This document shows positions 25,934 to 53,223 of a stretch of 64,000 bases of DNA, piece by piece. Source of the DNA: Patescibacteria group bacterium (GTDB lineage: Bacteria > Patescibacteriota > Patescibacteriia > Patescibacteriales > JBAZCA01); assembly GCA_041661405.1 (NCBI GenBank), contig JBAZUL010000005.1:3164-67163 (forward strand). The letters run 5' to 3'. Position 1 is the stretch's first letter, and each line of letters opens with the position of its first letter. Position numbers and translations under genes: made by a program. The notes below the pieces were generated by a model, which searched no databases, was not told the origin of the DNA, and saw only the letters and a program-made list of their open reading frames with translations.

Positions 25934-26878
25934 TTAATTCATATTAACGCTCCCGGCCTTCCGTCCTTCAGCCATAAACCGGCAGACTTTCTCGCTCGTG
26001 GAAATAGCGACATCAACCTGCGCTTCTTCGGTTGAAGCGCCGATATGCGGGGTAAGAATTACGTTCGGCAATCCGGCGAGTTCGCATTCCATTTTTTCGT
26101 CATTGGTTTTTGGCTCGTTAGCGTAAACGTCAATTGCCGCTCCGGCGAGATGGCCGGATTTTAAGGCTTCTGCCAGAGCCATTAAATCAACAACGTTCCC
26201 GCGGGCGAGATTGATGATGTAGCTTCCCTTTTTCATCAACGCCAGTTTTTCGGCGTTAATAAGATTGGGTGCCGAGGCATGGAGCGATACGACGTCAGCG
26301 ACGGCCAGAAGCTCTTCCAGAGTCTTCATCTTTTTCGCGTTGCCCATCGGGAGTTTATCAAAAACGTCAAAGAATATAACTTTCATGCCGAGCGCTTCGG
26401 CTAAAACCGAAAGTTGGGAGCCGATGTTGCCGTAGCCCACTATGCCTAAAGTTTTTCCCCGGACTTCATAAGAACCTTTGGCTGATTTTTTCCAGTCTCC
26501 GGCGTGCATTTCCCGGTTGCGGTCGCCGATTTTTCGCAGTAAGGAAATAATCAGGCCAATACCTAGTTCGGCAACGCTTCGCGTTGAAGAAAAAGGCGCG
26601 TTAAAAACGCAGACTCCGGCTTTAGAGCAGGCCGCTAAATCAACCTTATTCAGTCCGATAACATACCCGCCAATGACTTTTAGACTATCGGCGGCGGACA
26701 AAATTTCTTCGTCAATTTCAGTCTTTGAGCGGATGCCGAGCGCGTCAACGCCCTTTATTTTTTCCTTTAACTCGTTCTTAGGCAAAGTGCCTTTGATTAA
26801 TTCCACTTCAAAATCGCGCTCTTCAAAATACTTTTTCGCGAGCTCGCTGATTCCTTCTAACAGTAGTACTTTTGGCAT
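25934..26878 (-). CDS. serA: D-3-phosphoglycerate dehydrogenase (short form, no ACT domain)
   Basis: 314 aa D-isomer 2-hydroxyacid dehydrogenase with NAD motif GIVGYGNIGSQ and catalytic region TPHIGASTEEAQ. Confidence 0.85.
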   Translation of the reverse strand: MPKVLLLEGISELAKKYFEERDFEVELIKGTLPKNELKEKIKGVDALGIRSKTEIDEEILSAADSLKVIGGYVIGLNKVDLAACSKAGVCVFNAPFSSTRSVAELGIGLIISLLRKIGDRNREMHAGDWKKSAKGSYEVRGKTLGIVGYGNIGSQLSVLAEALGMKVIFFDVFDKLPMGNAKKMKTLEELLAVADVVSLHASAPNLINAEKLALMKKGSYIINLARGNVVDLMALAEALKSGHLAGAAIDVYANEPKTNDEKMECELAGLPNVILTPHIGASTEEAQVDVAISTSEKVCRFMAEGRKAGSVNMN

Positions 26879-26993
26879 AGGTTTATGTTGATCTAATTAA
26901 TAACAAATTTGGAAACAGGAGAGGACGTTTCCATGCGAAGGCCAGGTGTAACAAAAGCCTTCTACAAAGAATCGTCCTCTCCGGGGCGCGGGG

Positions 26994-27203
26994 TCACTCA
27001 TCCCAGTTTTCATTATCTGGGAGATCGTTATCCCGCGCCTCCTCCTCCAGAGGAGGCGCTTTTTTCTCCTCAACGGTTCCCTCGGACGCCCGAGGAGATT
27101 TAGGCGCCCGAATTTCGGTCGGTGCATTCAAGCAGCGAATGCACCGACCGGTGTCCTGATTCAAGTGCCCGCCATCGCCTGACGGGCAAAAAATAAAAGA
27201 CAT
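26994..27203 (-). CDS. GC-rich small ORF A (69 aa), Cys/His N-terminal half and acidic tail
   Basis: The SD and start read GGGGAGGTGAGAGATG. First-position G periodicity suggests coding. It contains perfect 13-bp (27117-27129/27137-27149) and 10-bp (27035-27044/27050-27059) palindromes. GC is about 55 percent by hand count. Confidence 0.5.
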   Translation of the reverse strand: MSFIFCPSGDGGHLNQDTGRCIRCLNAPTEIRAPKSPRASEGTVEEKKAPPLEEEARDNDLPDNENWDE

Positions 27204-27335
27204 CTCTCACCTCCCCGGCGGCCCATCCTTGCGGCCGCCTTTTTGATTATTAATGCCACCGAACAAAAAACCAGAAACCAATTCTTATTGATTTCCACTT
27301 TCTTGTCCACTGCTATTTTTAAAAGGAACAAAATT
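27204..27335 (-). promoter_or_regulatory. leader of sORF A (paralogous to the leader of sORF B)
   Basis: Shares with 27633-27766 the AATTTTGTTCCTTT box, a 17-bp hairpin (27261-27277/27292-27308), TTAAYAA..AAAGGCG and a GC hairpin abutting the SD. Confidence 0.55.
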
Positions 27336-27419
27336 ATATAAATTCTGTTATTAGAATTGGAACCCGGAGACGTTCCTGAAAGATAGAACACATCTTCCAA
27401 AAGCTTCTCCGGGGCACCG

Positions 27420-27632
27420 CTATTCGTCAACGAGGCCGAGTACTTCGGCCACGGTCTCGCTGACCGTGGTTGGCCAGTAAACTATCAGAATAGCGGCCTC
27501 AACCGGCGTAAAAGCCGGCTGAATTTCTTCGTGACCCCGGTCATCCGGAACCACAATCCCCCCGATTTCCGGGGGTAAGGGGCGTGTTGTTCTCTGCCGG
27601 CACCCCTCGCCGGCGGACTCATTATTAAACAT
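27420..27632 (-). CDS. GC-rich small ORF B (70 aa)
   Basis: The SD and start read GGAAAGGAGAGGAGATG. It contains several perfect internal hairpins, for example CCACGGTCagcgaGACCGTGG. It may be coding or a structured RNA. Confidence 0.45.
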   Translation of the reverse strand: MFNNESAGEGCRQRTTRPLPPEIGGIVVPDDRGHEEIQPAFTPVEAAILIVYWPTTVSETVAEVLGLVDE

Positions 27633-27766
27633 CTCCTCTCCTTTCCGGCGCGCCCCTATCCGAGAGGGGGCAACGCCTTTGTTAATTCCAACGAACAGGA
27701 AACCGGAAACTAAACGCGTTTACTTTCCGCTTTCCTGTCCGCTGATCATTTTAAAGGAACAAAATT
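27633..27766 (-). promoter_or_regulatory. leader of sORF B (paralogous to the leader of sORF A)
   Basis: The hairpin at 27693-27709/27724-27740 aligns with that of leader A. It differs at four stem positions where G-C pairs in B replace A-U or G-U pairs in A, so pairing is kept. Confidence 0.55.
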
Positions 27767-27799
27767 ATTGAAAGGGATTAACGCAATCTAATCCATTTT

Positions 27800-28693
27800 T
27801 TATGTAAATAATCCCGTACTCAAATACTTCTCCCCTCTATCCGGAAAAATCGTTACTATGTTCCCTTTATCAATTTTTTCCGCAATTTTTAAGGTCGCGA
27901 GCATGGCGGCGCCGGACGACATGCCGACAAAAATCCCTTCTTCGGCAATAATTCTCCGCGCCATCCTAAAAGCCTCTTCCGTGTCAATCATAATAACATC
28001 GTCCAATTTTTCGCAGTCATAAATCTCCGGGACAATCGCCTCTTCCATGTTTTTTAATCCCTGGATGTAGTGCTCCTTAACCGGTTCAGCCGAAACGATT
28101 TTCACCGCCGGATTTTTCTTTTTTAAATAAGCGCCAATACCCATGAGCGTTCCCGACGTTCCGAGGGCGGCGGTAAAATAATCAATCTTCCCGCCCATGT
28201 CGCGCCAGATTTCCCGAGCCGTTGTTTCGTAATGGGCGATCTTATTATATTCGTTGCTAAACTGGTTCGGGTTAAAATATTTATCCGGATTTTCCGCCGC
28301 GAGCTCCCTTACTTTCATTATAGCTCCGTCCGTGCCTTTTGTCTTGTCAGTTAAAATTACTTCCGCGCCGAACGCTTTAATCATCTTAATCCGTTCCGGA
28401 GAAACCGCCGCGCTCATTACTATTTCAACCCTATAGCCGCGCGCCGCCCCAATCATGGCGAGCGCGATTCCGGTATTGCCGGAAGTCGCTTCAATAATAA
28501 TTTTTTCCTTATTAAGCTTCCCTTCTTTTTCTCCCTGTTCCAGCATTTTTAAGGCGATCCGGTCTTTTATGCTTCCGCCCGGATTAACACCCTCAATTTT
28601 AGCGTAAATATTCACGCCCTTTTTTTTATTCAGTTTATTGATTTTTACCATCGGCGTCCGGCCGATTGTATCAAGGATGTTGTTATAAATCAT
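27800..28693 (-). CDS. cysK: cysteine synthase (O-acetylserine/O-phosphoserine sulfhydrylase)
   Basis: 297 aa with PGGSIKDR (PLP lysine region), TSGNTGIALA and GTSGT motifs. Confidence 0.9.
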   Translation of the reverse strand: MIYNNILDTIGRTPMVKINKLNKKKGVNIYAKIEGVNPGGSIKDRIALKMLEQGEKEGKLNKEKIIIEATSGNTGIALAMIGAARGYRVEIVMSAAVSPERIKMIKAFGAEVILTDKTKGTDGAIMKVRELAAENPDKYFNPNQFSNEYNKIAHYETTAREIWRDMGGKIDYFTAALGTSGTLMGIGAYLKKKNPAVKIVSAEPVKEHYIQGLKNMEEAIVPEIYDCEKLDDVIMIDTEEAFRMARRIIAEEGIFVGMSSGAAMLATLKIAEKIDKGNIVTIFPDRGEKYLSTGLFT

Positions 28694-31972: not shown

Positions 31973-31999
31973 AAAAATACCGCCCCGGTTGCGGGCGGC
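31973..31999 (-). terminator. attenuator terminator of the Thr/Ile/Met-rich leader
   Basis: The minus strand reads GCCGCCCgcaaccgGGGCGGTATTTTTG. Its 5' arm (31989-31999) is perfectly complementary (11 bp) to 32055-32065 inside the leader ORF. Confidence 0.6.
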
Positions 32000-32027
32000 T
32001 TTCAACTTTTCTTCTAACTTTCAGCTT

Positions 32028-32138
32028 TTAACTTTGAACTTTTAACTTTGTTCTGCCGCCCGCAATTAAAACCCCGGTCATAATAATTCCGGTCATCATC
32101 ATAATGGTCTTAATTGTGGTGGCAATAAATTTCATCAT
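32028..32138 (-). CDS. 36-codon leader peptide rich in Thr, Ile and Met (alternative reading: small hydrophobic peptide)
   Basis: Own translation gives MMKFIATTIKTIMMMTGIIMTGVLIAGGRTKLKVQS. It is below the ORF-track size cutoff. It is preceded by TTGACA-17-TTAAAT, with the ATG 6 nt after the -10 (leaderless geometry). Confidence 0.5.
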   Translation of the reverse strand: MMKFIATTIKTIMMMTGIIMTGVLIAGGRTKLKVQS

Positions 32139-32219: not shown

Positions 32220-32450
32220 TTACTGTTTCAAGCTCCCCCGTTTTCCATAAGCTCTTATTGCCTCGTCTTTTTCTTCTTCAGTGGTTATTCCTTCATTTTT
32301 GCTTTCTTCATTAACCCGCTTTATCCCGCGAGCTTCCATGCACCCAGGATGCATGCAAGCCTCGGTACAGGTGAGCGCCTCTTCTTTTTTCCCAACTTCT
32401 CCAGTCATCGGTTGTTCTTCGCCGACAATCTCTTTTGGTTTCTCATTCAT
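32220..32450 (-). CDS. small ORF D (76 aa), Glu/Lys-rich with a CTEACMHPGC motif
   Basis: ORF with a TATAAT-containing upstream region. The Cys motif is encoded by an 11-bp near-palindrome, GCTTGCATGCA..TGCATGGAAGC. Confidence 0.4.
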   Translation of the reverse strand: MNEKPKEIVGEEQPMTGEVGKKEEALTCTEACMHPGCMEARGIKRVNEESKNEGITTEEEKDEAIRAYGKRGSLKQ

Positions 32451-32613: not shown

Positions 32614-32859
32614 CTATTTGGCTTTTTCCTCCTTGATAATTCCGAGTTCAAGATGACGAGCCCGATACATCTCACTTACCGGGTTCACCTCCTGCTCCCG
32701 GGCAGTCTTCGCCCGGTCGCAGTCCCTTTCCGAGTGCGCCCTCTCAAAGCGGCGCACCAGTTTTTCTTTTTCGGCCTGACTCAGCATATTGCCGAACTGG
32801 CCGATCTCCAGCCCGCACCTACTACAGCAGACTGGAACAAAAAAACTTATTGAAACCAT
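32614..32859 (-). CDS. GC-rich small ORF C (81 aa), with an N-terminal CCSRCG motif
   Basis: The SD and start read GGGGAGGAAGAGATG, preceded by a GC hairpin and a TTAACAA..AAACGGGCGG box homologous to the leaders of sORFs A and B. Confidence 0.5.
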   Translation of the reverse strand: MVSISFFVPVCCSRCGLEIGQFGNMLSQAEKEKLVRRFERAHSERDCDRAKTAREQEVNPVSEMYRARHLELGIIKEEKAK

Positions 32860-33189: not shown

Positions 33190-33220
33190 AAAAACCGTCT
33201 CCCCTTTTCCCTGAGACGGC
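33190..33220 (-). terminator. rho-independent terminator of the pheA-tyrA operon
   Basis: The minus strand reads CCGTCTCagggaaaagggGAGACGG followed by TTTTT. It begins 46 nt after the tyrA stop. Confidence 0.75.
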
Positions 33221-33265
33221 CTGCGTTGTAATTGGAATATATTATAAATAAAATATAACAATCTG

Positions 33266-34294
33266 TCAAGCCTGCCGCCGGTAAGACTCATTCATAATCG
33301 CCCGATAAACTTCCCTGATCAGTTGCTCGTCCAGCTTGAATTTTTTTATTTTGTCCTTAATTATTTCCTCTTCCCTTTTTTTATCAATAACCGGCAGGCC
33401 TTTTTTTCGCTTAATCCGGCCAATGGCTTTTACTTCGGCAAAGCGGTTGCCTAAAAGTCCGAATATCCGGTTGTCAATCTTATTAATCATCCCCCGCCGA
33501 AACCCGAGCTCGTCTTTCGCTCCGGCTTTCCTAATCCGGCTATCCATTAATTCGCAGGCAATCATGAACTTAGCGCGCACGGCAGAAGCGTAGGGATTAT
33601 AATTATGCATGTCGTAGAACAACTGCCAGTTGTCCGAAGTCGTATGCGGGAGGATAGAAAGAAGATCAGTATAGCCGGGAGTAAAAATTTTCTGTTCCCG
33701 CGCTCCGGCGCCGAGTAACGCCCGGCCGACAAAATGGACTAAGCCTAAAGTATAGGCGTTTTGGCGGTCATGATCTTCGGGAGTGGTAATAATAACTTCT
33801 AGTCCCAGGCCAGTTAAAAATTTTCTCGCCATGCTGAGCCGTCGGCTATCAATCCTTATTGGGCATAAGACAATCTGCAGTCCTTTCAATTTCCAGGCTT
33901 GTTTTAAAAAATTGAATTTTGTCGTTACCGGACCGAACTGCGGATGAGTTCCCATGATTAATACATTTTCAGGCAAATATTTCTTAAGCCAGCCGCAAGG
34001 ATAAACTTTAACTGAACAGGTATCAACGATCAAAGCGCCCGGCTTTACGTCTGGCGCGATTTTTTTTATCACCTTTTCGGTCTGCGATATGGGGACAGCG
34101 AGAATTATTAAATCGCAGGCGGCCGCTTCTTTTAAGCTTACTATTCCAGCGCTGATTTTTTTCGCTTTAGCAATATCATCTTTGGAAAACCCGCTGTCAT
34201 AAACCTTAACCTGAGCCTTTCCGGAAAAAACGCTCGCGGCCAACTTTCCAAAACGGCCGAATCCGATAATAGCGACTGTTTTCTTACCGGTCAT
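33266..34294 (-). CDS. tyrA: prephenate dehydrogenase with C-terminal chorismate mutase (AroQ) domain
   Basis: The N-terminus VAIIGFGRFGK is a Rossmann motif within a PDH core. The C-terminal 90 aa (RRGMINKIDNRIFGLLGNRFAEVKAIGRIKRKKGLPVIDKKREEEI) fit the AroQ CM helix pattern. Confidence 0.85.
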   Translation of the reverse strand: MTGKKTVAIIGFGRFGKLAASVFSGKAQVKVYDSGFSKDDIAKAKKISAGIVSLKEAAACDLIILAVPISQTEKVIKKIAPDVKPGALIVDTCSVKVYPCGWLKKYLPENVLIMGTHPQFGPVTTKFNFLKQAWKLKGLQIVLCPIRIDSRRLSMARKFLTGLGLEVIITTPEDHDRQNAYTLGLVHFVGRALLGAGAREQKIFTPGYTDLLSILPHTTSDNWQLFYDMHNYNPYASAVRAKFMIACELMDSRIRKAGAKDELGFRRGMINKIDNRIFGLLGNRFAEVKAIGRIKRKKGLPVIDKKREEEIIKDKIKKFKLDEQLIREVYRAIMNESYRRQA

Positions 34295-35184: not shown

Positions 35185-35979
35185 ATGCCAAGCAAAAAAG
35201 CACTACTGTCAAAAATCATTAACCCGCTATCCGGACGGACGGTTATTGTTCCCATGGATCACGGCGTTACCGACGGACCGATTCCGGGTCTCTTAAAAAT
35301 GGATGAGACCATTAAAAGGGTAAAGGAAGGCGGCGCTGACGCGATTATTATTCATAAAGGCATTTTTAAATTATATAAAGAAGTAATCGGCGATCTCCCG
35401 GCTCTGATCCATATTTCAGCCTCAACCGGCATGGGCGTTTCTTTAAAAAAAGTTTTAGTCGCGACCGCCAAAGAAGTTAAAAATTTAGGCGCGGCCGGAG
35501 TTTCGGTGCATCTAAATATCGGCAACCAATACGAGCCGGAAATGCTTCGCGATCTGGGGATAGTGGCGCGCGAATGCGAAGAAGAGGGTTTACCCCTGCT
35601 CGCCATGATGTACCCGAGAAACATTATTGACGGAAAAATCATCAATTATAACGACGCGGAAAAGGTCGGCCACGCCGCCCGCTTAGCCGCCGAACTGGGT
35701 GCTGATATAGTCAAAGTCCCTTACACCGGCGACGCTAAAAGTTTCGGCGAAGTGGTTCGCGGCTGTCCCATACCGGTTGTAATCGCCGGCGGAGCCAAAG
35801 GATCGGAAGAGGCAATGCTTTCTTCAATCCGGGATTGCGTCCTTGCCGGAGCGGCCGGAGTTTCAGTCGGCCGAAATGTTTTCCAATCCGAAGACGTTTC
35901 CGGCATGGTTAAAAAAGTCCGGGAAGCGGTATATGACGCCGCGGCTGTATCAGCCAACGCTAAAACATCGCGTAATTAA
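35185..35979 (+). CDS. 2-amino-3,7-dideoxy-D-threo-hept-6-ulosonate (ADH) synthase, archaeal-type AroA' (class I aldolase/DhnA family)
   Basis: 264 aa. VIVPMDHGVTDGP, IIHKG, LLAMMYPR, AARLAAELGADIVKVPYTGD, PVVIAGG and GAAGVSVGRNVFQ closely follow my recollection of M. jannaschii MJ0400. It is adjacent to aroB'. Confidence 0.8.
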   Translation: MPSKKALLSKIINPLSGRTVIVPMDHGVTDGPIPGLLKMDETIKRVKEGGADAIIIHKGIFKLYKEVIGDLPALIHISASTGMGVSLKKVLVATAKEVKNLGAAGVSVHLNIGNQYEPEMLRDLGIVARECEEEGLPLLAMMYPRNIIDGKIINYNDAEKVGHAARLAAELGADIVKVPYTGDAKSFGEVVRGCPIPVVIAGGAKGSEEAMLSSIRDCVLAGAAGVSVGRNVFQSEDVSGMVKKVREAVYDAAAVSANAKTSRN

Positions 35980-35992
35980 AATTTAAATTTTT

Positions 35993-37003
35993 ATGTCTAA
36001 AACATTCTGGTATCAGCCCCCGGTCTGGGATAAAAAACTGGTTACCGCGGCCATTGAATCGGGCTTTTCAGCAATCTACGTCCGGCCGGAAGACATAGCC
36101 CGGACTAAAGAGCTGTCTTTAGCCAAAGTCATTTCAACCGTCGCGCCAGCTGATTTTATTATCGGCGAGAATGTTGACGAAGTGATTATTAAAAACAAGG
36201 AATCAGAAAACAGGGCTGTCGCGCATCAGGGGAAAATCCCGGTTATCATCCGCAATGTTGACTGGACCATTATCCCTTTGGAAAATCTCATCTCAAAAAC
36301 TTCCAACCTGATCCAGCATGTCCGGAGTTGTGATGAAGCAAAACTGGCTTTTGAAACTCTGGAAACCGGCTGTGACGGCATACTGCTTGAAACCAGCGAC
36401 TTGAATGAAATAAAAAAAACCGCCGGCCTGATAAAAGACGCCCAAAACGAAAAGTTAAAACTTATCCAGGCTGAAATTACTTCCATAGAACAGCTCGGAT
36501 TGGGCGACCGGGTCGTTGTTGATACTTCTTCTATATTATTTCCCGGCCAGGGCATGCTTATCGGCGACTCTTCCAAAAGTATGTTTTTAGTATATAATGA
36601 AAACGTGGAGACTCCCTACTGCGATCCGCGGCCTTTCCGGGTAAACGCCGGCGGCGCCCACGCCTATATCCGCCTGCCCGGCGACAAAACCAAATATCTT
36701 GGGGAATTAAAAAGCGGCCTGAAAGCCCTTACCGTTGACCGGGAAGGCAATACCGAAGAAGTTATCATCGGCCGGGTAAAGATTGAAAAACGCCCCATGC
36801 TCATTGTCCGGGCCAAAGCCGGAGAACGGGACATGAGCCTTGTCATGCAGAACGCCGAAACCATCCGCCTAACCGGAATTGACGGACAGCCGATTTCAGT
36901 TACTAAATTAAAACCGGGCGACCGGGTGCTCGCCTTCCTGCAGGAAGAAGGCGTCGGAAGGCATTTCGGACAAAAAATTAAAGAGACAATCACTGAGAGG
37001 TAA
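35993..37003 (+). CDS. 3-dehydroquinate synthase II, archaeal-type AroB'
   Basis: 336 aa. The N-terminal W...KK.VTAAIESG pattern and the RPFRVNAGGAHAY motif are characteristic of the DHQS-II (MJ1249-like) family. Confidence 0.85.
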   Translation: MSKTFWYQPPVWDKKLVTAAIESGFSAIYVRPEDIARTKELSLAKVISTVAPADFIIGENVDEVIIKNKESENRAVAHQGKIPVIIRNVDWTIIPLENLISKTSNLIQHVRSCDEAKLAFETLETGCDGILLETSDLNEIKKTAGLIKDAQNEKLKLIQAEITSIEQLGLGDRVVVDTSSILFPGQGMLIGDSSKSMFLVYNENVETPYCDPRPFRVNAGGAHAYIRLPGDKTKYLGELKSGLKALTVDREGNTEEVIIGRVKIEKRPMLIVRAKAGERDMSLVMQNAETIRLTGIDGQPISVTKLKPGDRVLAFLQEEGVGRHFGQKIKETITER

Positions 37004-44089: not shown

Positions 44090-44099
44090 ATCTAGCCGC

Positions 44100-44128
44100 T
44101 TGACACCAATTACCCTTTTTGCTATAAA
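44100..44128 (+). promoter_or_regulatory. sigma70-like promoter for the trp T-box leader
   Basis: TTGACA (44100-44105), a 17-nt spacer and TATAAA (44123-44128), starting 11 nt after the aroC stop. Confidence 0.6.
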
Positions 44129-44134
44129 TAAAAT

Positions 44135-44420
44135 AGAACATTTACAGAAATAATATCCACAGCCAGATCCCGGTCTTTCCGGGAATGGGTCTGGCTTTTC
44201 TCCCGCTAATCCGGGAGAAGGATGGCTTTTGCATGAGTGAAAGCCCGGCTTCCTCCGTAACCAAAGGATAACTGAATTCCACGCGGACTCGTTCTGAGCC
44301 TGCCGAAGGAGTCAGTGAAAGCGTCCCGCCCGAGGCGGGAAAAAAAGGTGGCACCGCGGGATAACCTCTCGTCCTTTTATCCAAGTATTTTATTTGGGTA
44401 AAAAGATGAGAGGTTTTTTT
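44135..44420 (+). promoter_or_regulatory. T-box riboswitch leader (presumed tRNA-Trp-responsive) with terminator
   Basis: The T-box sequence AAAGGTGGCACCGCGGGA (core at 44347-44358), AGTGAAAG elements, a stem III-like CCCGCCcgaGGCGGG, and a terminator AACCTCTC (44363-44370) / GAGAGGTT (44408-44415) plus T7, directly before trpE. Confidence 0.75.
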
Positions 44421-44439
44421 ATTGCCTAACTGCAATATT

Positions 44440-45873
44440 ATGGCTTTGCCGAAAATAACCCTAAAAAACAAAAAACCGACTTATATCAAATTCGCCGAGG
44501 ATTTAGATTTCTTCGGGCTGTTCAAAAAAATTGAACAGGAGTTTGATAATTGTTTTATCCTTGAATCTCTCGGCGACGGAGGCGACCGGGCGCGTTATCA
44601 TGTCATCGGTTTTGGACCGGAAATAATTTTATCGGCTCGCGGCCATGAATTAAAAATAACCGATTGCCATGAAAATAAGGCCAACGCCAAAAAAACAAAC
44701 ACTAAAATTAAATCAAAAACTTATCCATCTAATAACCCTTATTACGCCCTGCGGGAAATTGTTCCGCGCGACATAATCTCGCGCCAATATTCCGGCGGCC
44801 TCATCGGCTATATCGCTTACGAGGGCATGAATTATTTTGAACCGGCCATTGATTTAAAACTTCATCCTGATTTTCAACAGTTTAAATTCGGGGTTTATAC
44901 CGACGGACTCGTTTACGATAAAATGACCGGCGAAGCGTCTTATTTTTATTATGACAACGACCGCTCGGCGTTAATCAGGGAAATCGCTTTCACGAAAAAA
45001 TCCAGCACCAAAACTTCCCCCGGCGCCCGCCAAAACGGAGTTAAAGTAAAATTCATCCGGGACACAAAAACCGAAAAAGCGCACGCGGCCATGGTAAAAA
45101 GGATAAAAAAAGATATCGTGGACGGAAAAATTTTCCAGTGCGTCGCCGGGTTTAAAAGCGAATTTAAGATAAGCGGCTCGGACATTTTAATTTACGAAAG
45201 GCTCCGGGAGGTCAATCCGTCGCCGCACATGTTTTACATAAAATTCGGCCGGGAAAAAGTAATCGGCGCTTCGCCCGAGCTTTTATTCCGCTTGCGCGAA
45301 GGGGAAATGGAGACTTTTCCACTGGCCGGGACAGCGGCCCGGGGAGGCAATCTCTCCGAGGACAAAAAACTGGCCCGCCAGTTATTATCCGATCCGAAAG
45401 AAATCGCCGAGCATTCCATGCTCATAGACTTGCACAGGAACGACATCGGCCGGGTGGCTAAATTCGGGACAGTTAAAGTGAAAAACGCGATGGCCATAAA
45501 AAAATTCAGCCATGTCCAGCATATCTCTTCCGAAGTGTCCGGCGTAATCAAAGAGAGCGAGGACATGTTCTCCGCCCTGGCCGCCAATTTCCCGGCCGGC
45601 ACTCTTACTGGCGCGCCGAAAATTGAGGCCATGAAAATAATCGCCCGCGAAGAAAAGGAACCGCGCGGCCCCTACGGCGGAGCCGTCGGCCATTTCGGCT
45701 TTTCGGGCGAATGCACCTTTGCCATCCCCATCCGCACGCTTTTCATCTCCGGCAATCGCGGTTTTACCCAGACTGGCGGCGGGATTGTTTATGACTCAAA
45801 ACCGGAAAATGAGTACCGGGAAATAATAAACAAGCTTGCGGCTATGAAAAAAGTTTTAAAGGAATTTAAATAA
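44440..45873 (+). CDS. trpE: anthranilate synthase component I
   Basis: The ATG at 44440 (MALPK) is preferred over the TTG at 44422. FILESL, SPELLFR, LAGTAARG and GGAVGHFGF.G..TFAIPIRT match chorismate-binding family motifs. Confidence 0.9.
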   Translation: MALPKITLKNKKPTYIKFAEDLDFFGLFKKIEQEFDNCFILESLGDGGDRARYHVIGFGPEIILSARGHELKITDCHENKANAKKTNTKIKSKTYPSNNPYYALREIVPRDIISRQYSGGLIGYIAYEGMNYFEPAIDLKLHPDFQQFKFGVYTDGLVYDKMTGEASYFYYDNDRSALIREIAFTKKSSTKTSPGARQNGVKVKFIRDTKTEKAHAAMVKRIKKDIVDGKIFQCVAGFKSEFKISGSDILIYERLREVNPSPHMFYIKFGREKVIGASPELLFRLREGEMETFPLAGTAARGGNLSEDKKLARQLLSDPKEIAEHSMLIDLHRNDIGRVAKFGTVKVKNAMAIKKFSHVQHISSEVSGVIKESEDMFSALAANFPAGTLTGAPKIEAMKIIAREEKEPRGPYGGAVGHFGFSGECTFAIPIRTLFISGNRGFTQTGGGIVYDSKPENEYREIINKLAAMKKVLKEFK

Positions 45874-52173: not shown

Positions 52174-53223
52174 TTATTTCTGCCGCTCCGGCCTTAACGC
52201 TCTGACCGCCGCTCCGGCCTGCCACATCTCGGATTCGCGCATTTCTTTTAATTCATTATCCAGTTTTGCCCGGTAATCCGGATCGCTATTGGCTTTTAGA
52301 ACCACGTCGGTTTGTTCTCCGCTTTTTACCCGGGCGTACAAATCTTCAAAAACCGGCTCCACCGCCTTGCGGAATTCATGGCGCCAGTCCAGCGCGCCGC
52401 GCTGGGCGGTCGTTGAGCAGTTAGCGTACATCCAGTCCATGCCGTTTTCGGCGACTAACGGAATTAAGCTCTGGGTCGCTTCTTCAACTGTCTCGTTAAA
52501 AGCTTCACTCGGCGAATGACCCATCTTCCGCAAAAGGTTATATTGGGCTTCCATGATGCCGGCCAAAGCGCCCATTAAAACTCCGCGTTCGCCGGTTAAA
52601 TCGCTATAAACCTCCTTCTGGAAAGTGGTCGGAAACAGGAATCCGGAACCGACCGCGATTCCGAGAGCCTTTGCCCGGTCTTCAGCCTTGCCGGTCGCGT
52701 CCTGAAAAACCGCGTAGCTTGAGTTAAGCCCTTTGCCTGCGACGAAAAGGCGGCGGAGCGAAGTGCCCGATCCTTTAGGCGCGACTAAAATCACGTCCAC
52801 GTCGGACGGCGGGATTATTCCGGTCTTATCTTTATAAGTAATGCCGAAACCATGGGAAAAATATAAAGCTTTGCCTTTGGTTAAATGTTTTTTTACTGTC
52901 GGCCAAAGGGTAATCTGCCCGGCATCGGATAATAAATAGCAGATAATCGTTCCTTTTTCCAGCGCTTCTTCAATCTCAAATAAATCTTTGCCCGGCTTAA
53001 AACCGTCCGCTACAGCCTTGTCATAAGACGCCGAGGGTTTTCTTTGGCCGACAATTACGTTAATCCCGTTGTCCTTCAGGTTCAGAGACTGTCCGGGACC
53101 CTGCACCCCGTAGCCGATAACAGCCACCACCTCGTCTTTTAAAACTTCCCGCGCTTTTTCCAGAGGAAACTCTTCCCTGGTTACCACTTCCTCCATCACC
53201 CCTCCAAAATTTATTTGCGCCAT
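52174..53223 (-). CDS. ilvC: ketol-acid reductoisomerase (class I)
   Basis: 349 aa. VIGYGVQGPGQSLNLKDNG, the FSHGF motif and a C-terminal knotted-domain pattern. Confidence 0.95.
   Translation of the reverse strand: MAQINFGGVMEEVVTREEFPLEKAREVLKDEVVAVIGYGVQGPGQSLNLKDNGINVIVGQRKPSASYDKAVADGFKPGKDLFEIEEALEKGTIICYLLSDAGQITLWPTVKKHLTKGKALYFSHGFGITYKDKTGIIPPSDVDVILVAPKGSGTSLRRLFVAGKGLNSSYAVFQDATGKAEDRAKALGIAVGSGFLFPTTFQKEVYSDLTGERGVLMGALAGIMEAQYNLLRKMGHSPSEAFNETVEEATQSLIPLVAENGMDWMYANCSTTAQRGALDWRHEFRKAVEPVFEDLYARVKSGEQTDVVLKANSDPDYRAKLDNELKEMRESEMWQAGAAVRALRPERQK

Follow-up and report, generated by a model that had tools for sequence, protein, structure and literature searches.

A 64-kb stretch of DNA (the window, by which we mean the whole of it) carries, on the minus strand at positions 26879-27799, a short region that we call island 1. 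The region lies between cysK (27800-28693) and serA (25934-26878). It consists of two tandem cassettes of one design, rather than of loose small open reading frames (ORFs). Each cassette encodes a small protein, and the two small ORFs, sORF A and sORF B, are probably real genes. The locus was recovered in three independent assemblies, and an allelic variant is present on one further contig, L002, from the same metagenome. Because three assemblies carry the locus, island 1 is not an assembly artefact. The source is an uncultured member of the Patescibacteria, known as a Parcubacteria/Falkowbacteria-like metagenome-assembled genome (MAG); the nearest CysK proteins (75-79% identity) come from Parcubacteria-group and Falkowbacteria MAGs.

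In both cassettes, a -10-like box (CAATAA or TATAAT) is followed by an invariant block, TTTTGTTCCTTT(T)AAAA, and by two hairpins, the first of ~25 bp and the second GC-rich; then come a near-perfect Shine-Dalgarno (SD) sequence, an ORF of 69-70 codons and a long 3' stem-loop. All of these features are on the minus strand. In cassette B the box CAATAA (27770-27765) and the invariant 5' block TTTTGTTCCTTTAAAA (27764-27749) together occupy 27749-27770. The block is identical in cassette A, except for an additional T, and in the diverged L002 allele, despite differing flanks. Next is the long RNA hairpin of the 5' untranslated region (UTR) (27688-27745), with 25 bp and 3 G:U pairs; its predicted energy is -35.7 kcal/mol for the minus strand and -21.9 kcal/mol for the plus strand. 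The GC-rich hairpin directly 5' of the SD (27647-27677) is dispensable, since it is missing from the L002 allele. The SD region, GGAAAGGAGAGGAG (27633-27646), places AGGAG 5 nucleotides (nt) before the ATG. The ORF itself (sORF B; 27420-27632) specifies an acidic protein of 70 amino acids (aa), which is entered at NCBI as MFA6106517.1 (locus tag WC745_02475), a hypothetical protein of 'Patescibacteria group bacterium'. The 3' stem-loop (27360-27418; base CCCCGGAGA...TCTCCGGG) starts 2 nt past the stop codon. It has 4 G:U pairs and no U-tract, and folds with -27.2 kcal/mol on the minus strand and -22.2 kcal/mol on the plus strand.

Cassette A begins with TATAAT (27338-27333) and the invariant block TTTTGTTCCTTTTAAAA (27333-27317), which together span 27317-27338. 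The long 5'-UTR hairpin (27257-27312) has 24 bp with 6 G:U pairs (-25.8 kcal/mol for the minus strand and -5.1 kcal/mol for the plus strand) and scores 97.6 bits with the covariance model of the leader. It is followed by a GC hairpin, GGCGGCC...GGCCGCC (27217-27239), that is terminator-like when read on the plus strand, and by the SD, GGGGAGGTGA (27207-27216). sORF A (26994-27203) encodes 69 aa and includes perfect stems, one of 14 bp and another of 10 bp. The 3' stem-loop (26918-26982; base GGAGAGGACG...CGTCCTCTCC) starts 11 nt past the stop codon and ends 40 nt upstream of the serA start, with energies of -37.2 kcal/mol (minus strand) and -30.9 kcal/mol (plus strand). The 91-nt leaders of cassettes A and B are 76% identical. 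The 3' stem-loops have basal and 3' sequences in common; the base of both is CCGGAGA...TCTCCGG, at 2-11 nt past the stop. A cassette architecture had been proposed in a first-pass annotation of this DNA, and these shared 5' and 3' untranslated modules agree with it.

The same annotation took the small ORFs to be translated. We scored codon usage with a codon log-likelihood (LLR) trained on the long genes of the window, for which the in-frame distribution was 0.32 +/- 0.12. The LLR of sORF B was 0.35, the median of host genes, and that of sORF A was ~0.15. Both values exceed those of at least 99.7% of off-frame chunks, and the other frames of island 1 all had negative scores. The codon usage of the sORFs is thus host-like. 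As a negative control we used an ORF antisense to the T-box leader that precedes trpE. This control has 70 codons, an SD-like motif, 54% GC and a folding z-score of -4.0; its LLR, -0.108, falls in the non-coding range.

The contig L002 carries a diverged allele of sORF B (Bv), of 84 aa, that is 43% identical to sORF B and sits between flanks that are 92-98% identical. Between B and Bv, dN/dS (the ratio of nonsynonymous to synonymous divergence) was 0.37-0.53 in the proposed frame and ~1.0 in the other two frames, with dS ~1. In addition, 11 of the 30 identical residues use different codons. The dN/dS values therefore identify sORF B as a real protein under purifying selection, though a fast-diverging one. 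Two deeply diverged B alleles in near-identical flanks suggest diversifying or balancing selection. The neighbouring cysK is a mosaic between the two population variants: comparing L002 with the window at 28020-28200, the ends are identical and the differences fall in one patch. This mosaic points to recombination around the variable sORF B cassette.

sORF A matched Bv in BLASTP with an E-value of 0.002 over 33 residues. Against a profile of B and Bv it scored 8.1 bits, which 2 of 3000 composition-matched shuffles reached. This similarity makes an old tandem duplication the most likely origin of the two cassettes, with UTRs better conserved than proteins; the leaders are 76% identical in nucleotide sequence and the proteins ~30% identical in their 33-residue core. 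No other relative was found. Among 5.8 G proteins the only match to sORF A was sORF A itself. The B+Bv profile matched only B and Bv, both in those 5.8 G proteins (indexed search) and in 1.84 G representatives (exhaustive HMMER). Two marginal matches to that profile were rejected as translated repeats. For F67, a small ORF of island 3, a search of billions of proteins likewise returned only the query. No sORF had a Pfam match, and tblastn against phages found none.

A different account of island 1 is that it encodes structured non-coding RNAs (cis-regulatory leaders or small RNAs), and that GC-rich hairpins give rise to the ORFs and SD-like motifs as a side effect. The extreme folding z-scores described below would fit, as would the want of a homolog of either ORF beyond this population, and the ORF antisense to the T-box shows that such artefacts occur. 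That same control, however, differs from sORFs A and B in its coding score, and the remaining frames of the island score below zero. The codon substitutions in B and Bv are constrained in frame (dN/dS ~0.4) and not out of frame (~1.0), A and B are similar as proteins despite nucleotide divergence, and both ORFs have an ATG at optimal spacing from an SD. We thus consider the non-coding account quite unlikely and retain the view that the ORFs are translated.

The first-pass annotation also held that housekeeping genes here mostly lack an SD and that the small ORFs have near-perfect ones. Both statements agree with our measurements. Across 54 long ORFs the median energy of the SD:anti-SD duplex was ~0 kcal/mol, and 0 of 54 reached -8 kcal/mol at the first start. 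Values for the small ORFs were -14.8 (sORF A), -15.2 (C63), -10.5 (D81), -9.8 (F67) and -9.5 kcal/mol (G47). All six SD-plus-ATG strings that had been quoted are present on the minus strand, at the correct coordinates. Among intergenic SD cores, 7 of 37 have an ATG or GTG at 4-10 nt that opens an ORF of at least 45 aa, compared with 8 of 121 genic cores; one of the seven is a false positive, the ORF antisense to the T-box. Start context also differs. In the 37 ATG-started long genes, T occupies position -1 in 86%, A position -6 in 73% and A position -5 in 57%, and G hardly occurs between -6 and -1. At -1, G or C is found in the SD-led sORFs, whereas the start context of the small ORF E76 (32220-32450) is of the housekeeping type. 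So few genes with a near-perfect SD among SD-free ordinary genes would imply a separate initiation regime. The paucity of SDs extends to most of the related Patescibacteria loci. With regard to the core genes, we observed that ilvC (52174-53223) may start at 53196, behind GGAGGGGTG (-9.8 kcal/mol), rather than at its first ATG; in that case, SD use would extend to at least one core gene.

The coding regions of A, B, Bv, C63, D81 and F67 are 3.4-6.2 standard deviations more stable than synonymous-codon shuffles, and 0 of 200 shuffles were as stable. For island 1, folding z-scores were -4.9 (-4.92) for sORF A, -3.65 for sORF B and -4.6 for Bv. The minimum free energy of the structured sORFs is -0.36 to -0.51 kcal/mol per nt; 210-nt chunks of host genes average -0.26 +/- 0.05 kcal/mol per nt, with a z-score of -0.28 +/- 0.83. 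The folds of E76 and G47 are ordinary. In the structured sORFs the coding region folds as a string of six or seven local hairpins, and its sense strand forms a more stable structure than its antisense strand. Since this stability exceeds that of synonymous shuffles, RNA structure has been selected on top of coding, through codon choice. Furthermore, Bv is hyper-stable though only ~50% identical to B in nucleotide sequence, so that the property itself must be maintained. The proposal of dual-function RNA/protein genes consequently holds in a limited sense only, as a dual constraint on RNA and protein (z-scores of -3.4 to -6.2).

Composition was a further part of the first-pass case. GC content is 46.2 +/- 3.9% for genes of the window (maximum 52.8%). 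It is 55.1% for sORF A, close to the ~55% counted previously, 58.1% for sORF B, 61.4% for C63 and 52.7% for D81; E76, F67 and G47 are average. Perfect hairpins with a stem of at least 7 bp number 6 in island 1 (6.5 per kb), against 1.4 per kb for the window as a whole and 0.84 +/- 0.97 in an island after dinucleotide shuffling, and no other 921-bp stretch of the window is as dense in them. The palindromes are thus as dense as had been claimed, but the longest stem (27116-27150) has 14 bp and not 13. It encodes the C-I-R-C motif of sORF A, just as a CxxC motif had been said to be encoded by a palindrome. Also in line with the earlier description, G at codon position 1 is more frequent in the sORFs (0.38-0.44) than in genes (0.354). 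We noted in passing that the 8-mers GGAGGAGG and CCTCCTCC occur in the 64 kb only in sORF A (27037-27059) and C63 (31773-31795), each time as the two arms of a hairpin within the ORF. Relative to host genes, GGAGG is enriched ~10-fold (n = 9) and CCTCC ~8-fold (n = 3) on the coding strand of the five structured sORFs.

The leader hairpin and the 3' stem-loops work only as RNA of the minus strand. The leader hairpin folds with -26 to -36 kcal/mol and 3-7 G:U pairs on the minus strand, and with -3 to -22 kcal/mol on the plus strand. In its four copies, 98.8% of cells are paired; most differences replace G:C by G:U, and one or two are double changes. Greater stability in the sense than in the antisense orientation likewise holds for the 3' stem-loops and for each cassette as a whole. 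A covariance model built from the leaders found two copies only in the 64-kb window and no match in 22 related Patescibacteria loci. An exact scan of GTDB genomes with the leader pattern gave 0 hits, and in metagenomes the pattern occurred only at the island-1 locus and on one allelic contig. Viral contigs gave 0 matches to the hairpin pattern and 28 chance matches to the short block, which scored at most 26 bits with the covariance model. Island 1 had no match in Rfam 15, including T-boxes and riboswitches, at gathering thresholds; at E <= 10 the best scores were at most 25 bits, compared with gathering scores of 39-211. The T-box before trpE, our positive control for Rfam, was found at 45 bits (E 6.7e-9). 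In our view the leader is a candidate for a new RNA motif of 5' UTRs.

Canonical promoters and U-tract terminators are present elsewhere in the window. Because the genuine terminators of this genome have U-tracts, the stem-loops of the cassettes are a different kind of element. This bears on the idea that the cassettes are a translation-sensing leader of serA-serC-serB, in which translation of the sORF to its stop would melt the 3' stem-loop and control read-through into serA. The geometry is suggestive: 2 and 11 nt separate the stop codons from the bases of the 3' stem-loops, serA starts 40 nt downstream of the end of cassette A, and classical leaders stand at other operon boundaries (the T-box before trpE, and a leader peptide rich in Thr, Ile and Met at 31979-32138). 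Yet neither 3' stem-loop has the U-tract of a terminator, Ser or Cys codons are not enriched, cassette B is followed by cassette A and not by an enzyme gene, and 70 codons under purifying selection for the protein are long for a leader peptide. On balance a serA leader is distinctly unlikely.

We also considered a type I toxin-antitoxin-like arrangement, that is, an inert structured mRNA for a small toxic peptide under the control of a cis-antisense RNA. The mRNA is indeed highly structured, the SD of cassette A is partly sequestered, the copies are tandem and strain-variable, and hairpins with T-runs that resemble terminators lie on the plus strand at 27035-27069 and 27217-27250. The predicted products, however, are acidic and hydrophilic and have no transmembrane segment; a consensus scan found no plus-strand promoter, and the GC hairpin is missing from the L002 allele. 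We judge such a system very improbable. The first of the two plus-strand hairpins, inside sORF A, has the textbook shape of an intrinsic terminator (10-bp GC stem, 5-nt loop and T6), with no plus-strand gene or promoter upstream.

Taking these observations together, we think the odds somewhat better than even that island 1 comprises two tandem paralogous small-protein genes that arose by duplication of a whole cassette, with mRNAs built for SD-dependent initiation and for control of stability or processing, amid bulk translation that is SD-independent. The duplicated unit would have been the 5' leader, SD, ORF of ~70 codons and 3' stem-loop, and the UTR modules would then have stayed better conserved than the proteins. 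The cassettes may be expressed as small mRNAs, or as segments of an mRNA, designed for post-transcriptional control and stability. As the start codon lies within stable structure, the ribosome would be recruited through SD:anti-SD pairing, unlike on bulk mRNAs. The stems of 21-25 bp on either side of each ORF have the length of RNase III substrates and no U-tracts; they are most likely processing or stabilising elements, and would set the sORF segments apart from the cysK-serA transcript. The products would be small acidic proteins. sORF A, with C6, H13 and C21-x2-C24 in an N-terminal C-x6-H-x7-C-x2-C knuckle, probably binds zinc; its acidic tail is probably disordered.

Several points weigh against this interpretation. 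All results are computational and come from one population. The case for SD function is drawn from spacing statistics, and the 3' end of the organism's 16S rRNA lies outside the window. The coding score of sORF A is at the 7th percentile of host-gene chunks, and the coding evidence for this ORF, known from a single allele, consists of codon bias and paralogy. AlphaFold2 (AF2) gave a predicted local distance difference test (pLDDT) of 65 for sORF A, with three short N-terminal strands, and of 58 for sORF B, with two predicted C-terminal helices; such values do not suffice for fold searches. Covariation in the leader is not significant, as 89 of 500 shuffles do as well, and its four copies are all from one population. 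The consensus promoter scan missed the -10-like box of the cassettes; its promoter function is presumed and the assignment weak. The involvement of RNase III is purely inferred. Finally, we tried the invariant 5' block as an anti-SD clamp. It pairs with the SD in short constructs, but the pairing vanishes once 45 nt of the ORF are added, and deletion or mutation of the block in silico was no more supportive. The clamp was therefore given up as the principal mechanism.

Initiation signals, composition, palindromes and position at operon boundaries had led the first-pass annotation to suggest acquired mini-cassettes. Read in this way, island 1 would hold horizontally acquired mobile cassettes, resembling integron cassettes, morons or miniature inverted-repeat transposable elements, inserted at an operon boundary. 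In keeping with that origin, GC is 9-12 points above that of host genes, the initiation signal looks foreign, the conserved ends are modular, related genomes lack cassettes beside cysK, and one cassette has been exchanged for a deeply diverged allele (dS ~1) between flanks that are 92-98% identical. Against it, codon usage is host-like. No integrase, transposase, reverse transcriptase, recombinase or phage gene came to light in the window, where 51 of the 54 long ORFs were scanned with Pfam. There are no flanking repeats, and the stem-loops have no attC-like cores (RYYYAAC/GTTRRRY). The G:U asymmetry indicates selection on RNA rather than on DNA recombination sites, and no further copies turned up in the window, in relatives, in viral contigs or in phage genomes. 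serA adjoins cysK in 0 of 80 cysK loci, hence these provide no empty or occupied site for comparison. Acquisition as a mobile cassette is therefore unlikely in our estimation, and the description of the cassettes as foreign was not borne out.

Nor was the suggestion of one family across the three islands. BLAST, all-against-all BLASTP, a covariance model and shuffle-calibrated profiles detected no sequence homology between the islands; the only sequence relationship is that of sORF A with B and Bv, and the leader occurs twice in the 64 kb. The three islands are alike in style, not in sequence. E76, and for the most part G47, are ordinary small ORFs. Overall, the first-pass account is partly supported: its cassette design, translation and dual RNA/protein constraint have support, and its foreign origin and single family do not. 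In 220 kb of related Patescibacteria loci we found 14 intergenic strong-SD sORFs, and in 0 of 14 did a high GC content go together with hyper-stable folding; the style could thus be peculiar to this lineage.

A more ambitious interpretation extends to all three islands. It posits two initiation regimes, one for the bulk genes, with SD-free, A-rich starts and T at -1, and another for at least five orphan micro-genes in 64 kb, which have canonical SDs and GC-rich mRNAs folded as strings of hairpins and would be translated only by those ribosomes, or in those conditions, that make an anti-SD available. The leader would then be a new class of cis-regulatory RNA belonging to that regulon, and the ORFs a new type of dual RNA/protein gene. 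If this were true, the SD would be a regulatory address and not a general start signal. We find it rather doubtful.

Island 2 contains regulatory elements of a more familiar kind. At 31979-32138 (minus strand) lies a classical leader-peptide attenuator, with a 36-aa ORF, MMKFIATTIKTIMMMTGIIMTGVLIAGG..., that includes 7 Met, 6 Ile and 6 Thr. A canonical terminator (31999-31979, with a T-run) and the antiterminator pairing GCGGGCGGC:GCCGCCCGC compete with each other, and the attenuator is upstream of C63, a LeuA_dimer-domain protein and thrC. In codons 2-9 of D81 (32834-32856, minus strand), GTTTCAATAAGTTTTTTTGTTCC is similar to the L002 version of the -10-like box and invariant block in the island-1 leader (TTTCAATAAAGTTTTTGTTCC), as a relic or by chance. 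Where tyrA ends and island 2 begins (33241-33269, minus strand), there is a perfect TTGACA-N17-TATAAT promoter, followed within ~25 nt by a hairpin with a T-run (33195-33219); the pair could specify a very short transcript or an attenuator. The divergent T-box leader (44098-44412, plus strand; also delimited as 44205-44379) is upstream of trpE (44422-45873). Its match to RF00230, at 45 bits, is below the gathering score of 93 and has an E-value of 6.7e-9 in local search. The leader's promoter reads TTGACA-N17-TATAAA, and its terminator is canonical, with a U-tract.

Island 1 is part of an amino-acid-biosynthesis supercluster of ~40 kb (24142-63947; ser, cys, thr, tyr/phe, shikimate/aro, trp, ilv and leu). 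The supercluster includes an archaeal-type 3-dehydroquinate (DHQ) synthase II and a DeoC-type aldolase (35185-37003), as well as three LeuA_dimer regulatory domains. Such a cluster is unusual, as the Patescibacteria lineage is usually described as auxotrophic.

The choice of start codons in Patescibacteria (CPR, short for candidate phyla radiation) is an open question, given their reduced ribosomes and the many Parcubacteria that seem to have no anti-SD. The anti-SD motif was present in only 48% of Parcubacteria 16S sequences, and many Parcubacteria are without a detectable motif (PMC9297842). The present locus offers a contrast within one genome, with dozens of SD-free, A-rich starts with T at -1 beside a few orphan micro-genes with textbook SDs. 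It is also an unusually clean case of codon choice shaped by RNA folding. Two deeply diverged alleles of one micro-gene in one population should be useful for understanding the origin and turnover of orphan small proteins.

How do the cassettes compare with known systems? Like phage morons and integron cassettes they are compact, with foreign-looking composition and conserved ends around orphan small ORFs between unrelated genes. Unlike integron cassettes, they have no AAC/GTT cores at the bases of the 3' stem-loops, no IntI recombinase came up in the Pfam scan of 51 of the 54 long ORFs, codon usage is that of the host, and selection on the conserved ends acts at the RNA level. Morons share the deviating composition, but there is no phage gene in the 64 kb, and the promoter and terminator are non-canonical. 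Amino-acid operon leaders (T-boxes and attenuators) are placed in a similar way, at operon boundaries within the biosynthesis cluster; island 1 differs from them in having no T-box or riboswitch match, no run of regulatory codons and no U-tract terminator, and in an ORF under protein-level selection. The products do not resemble type I toxins, being acidic and hydrophilic, and AF2 predicts short strands or helices and disorder. C(P)XCG zinc-finger micro-proteins have two CxxC(G) pairs within fewer than 70-80 aa, whereas sORF A has one CxxC and sORF B a single Cys.

Hairpins processed by RNase III are found in the early mRNAs of phage T7 and in the lambda N leader, and a stabilising terminal stem-loop in the 5' UTR of ompA. 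The cassettes are similar in that stems of ~21-25 bp with small internal loops, acting as strand-specific RNA and lacking U-tracts, flank each cistron. The sequences are unrelated to those examples, the window has no rnc gene, and cleavage here is a prediction only. In the dual-function coding RNAs RNAIII/hld, SgrS/SgrT and SR1/SR1P, the parts responsible for structure and base-pairing are for the most part located outside the ORF. As there, a small ORF in island 1 is carried by an RNA whose structure is itself selected; unlike there, the ORF is the most structured part.

The closest parallel for the start signals is the SD-led rpsU (bS21) of Flavobacteriia, where ordinary genes are SD-free with an A-rich context and few genes have an extended, near-perfect SD (PMC9976891, PMC7797042, PMC13000453). 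Ribosomes of Bacteroidia ignore SDs except on this specialised gene, rpsU (PMC9976891, PMC7797042). Specialised translation of the Bacteroidia type combines a 16S rRNA that retains a sequestered anti-SD with a majority of genes that lack an SD; of these two traits, the paucity of SDs is the one seen here, in the window and in related Patescibacteria loci. The SD-led genes described here differ in encoding orphan small proteins and not a ribosomal protein. If their SDs function, this organism keeps SD recognition for a special class of genes, as Bacteroidia do for rpsU.

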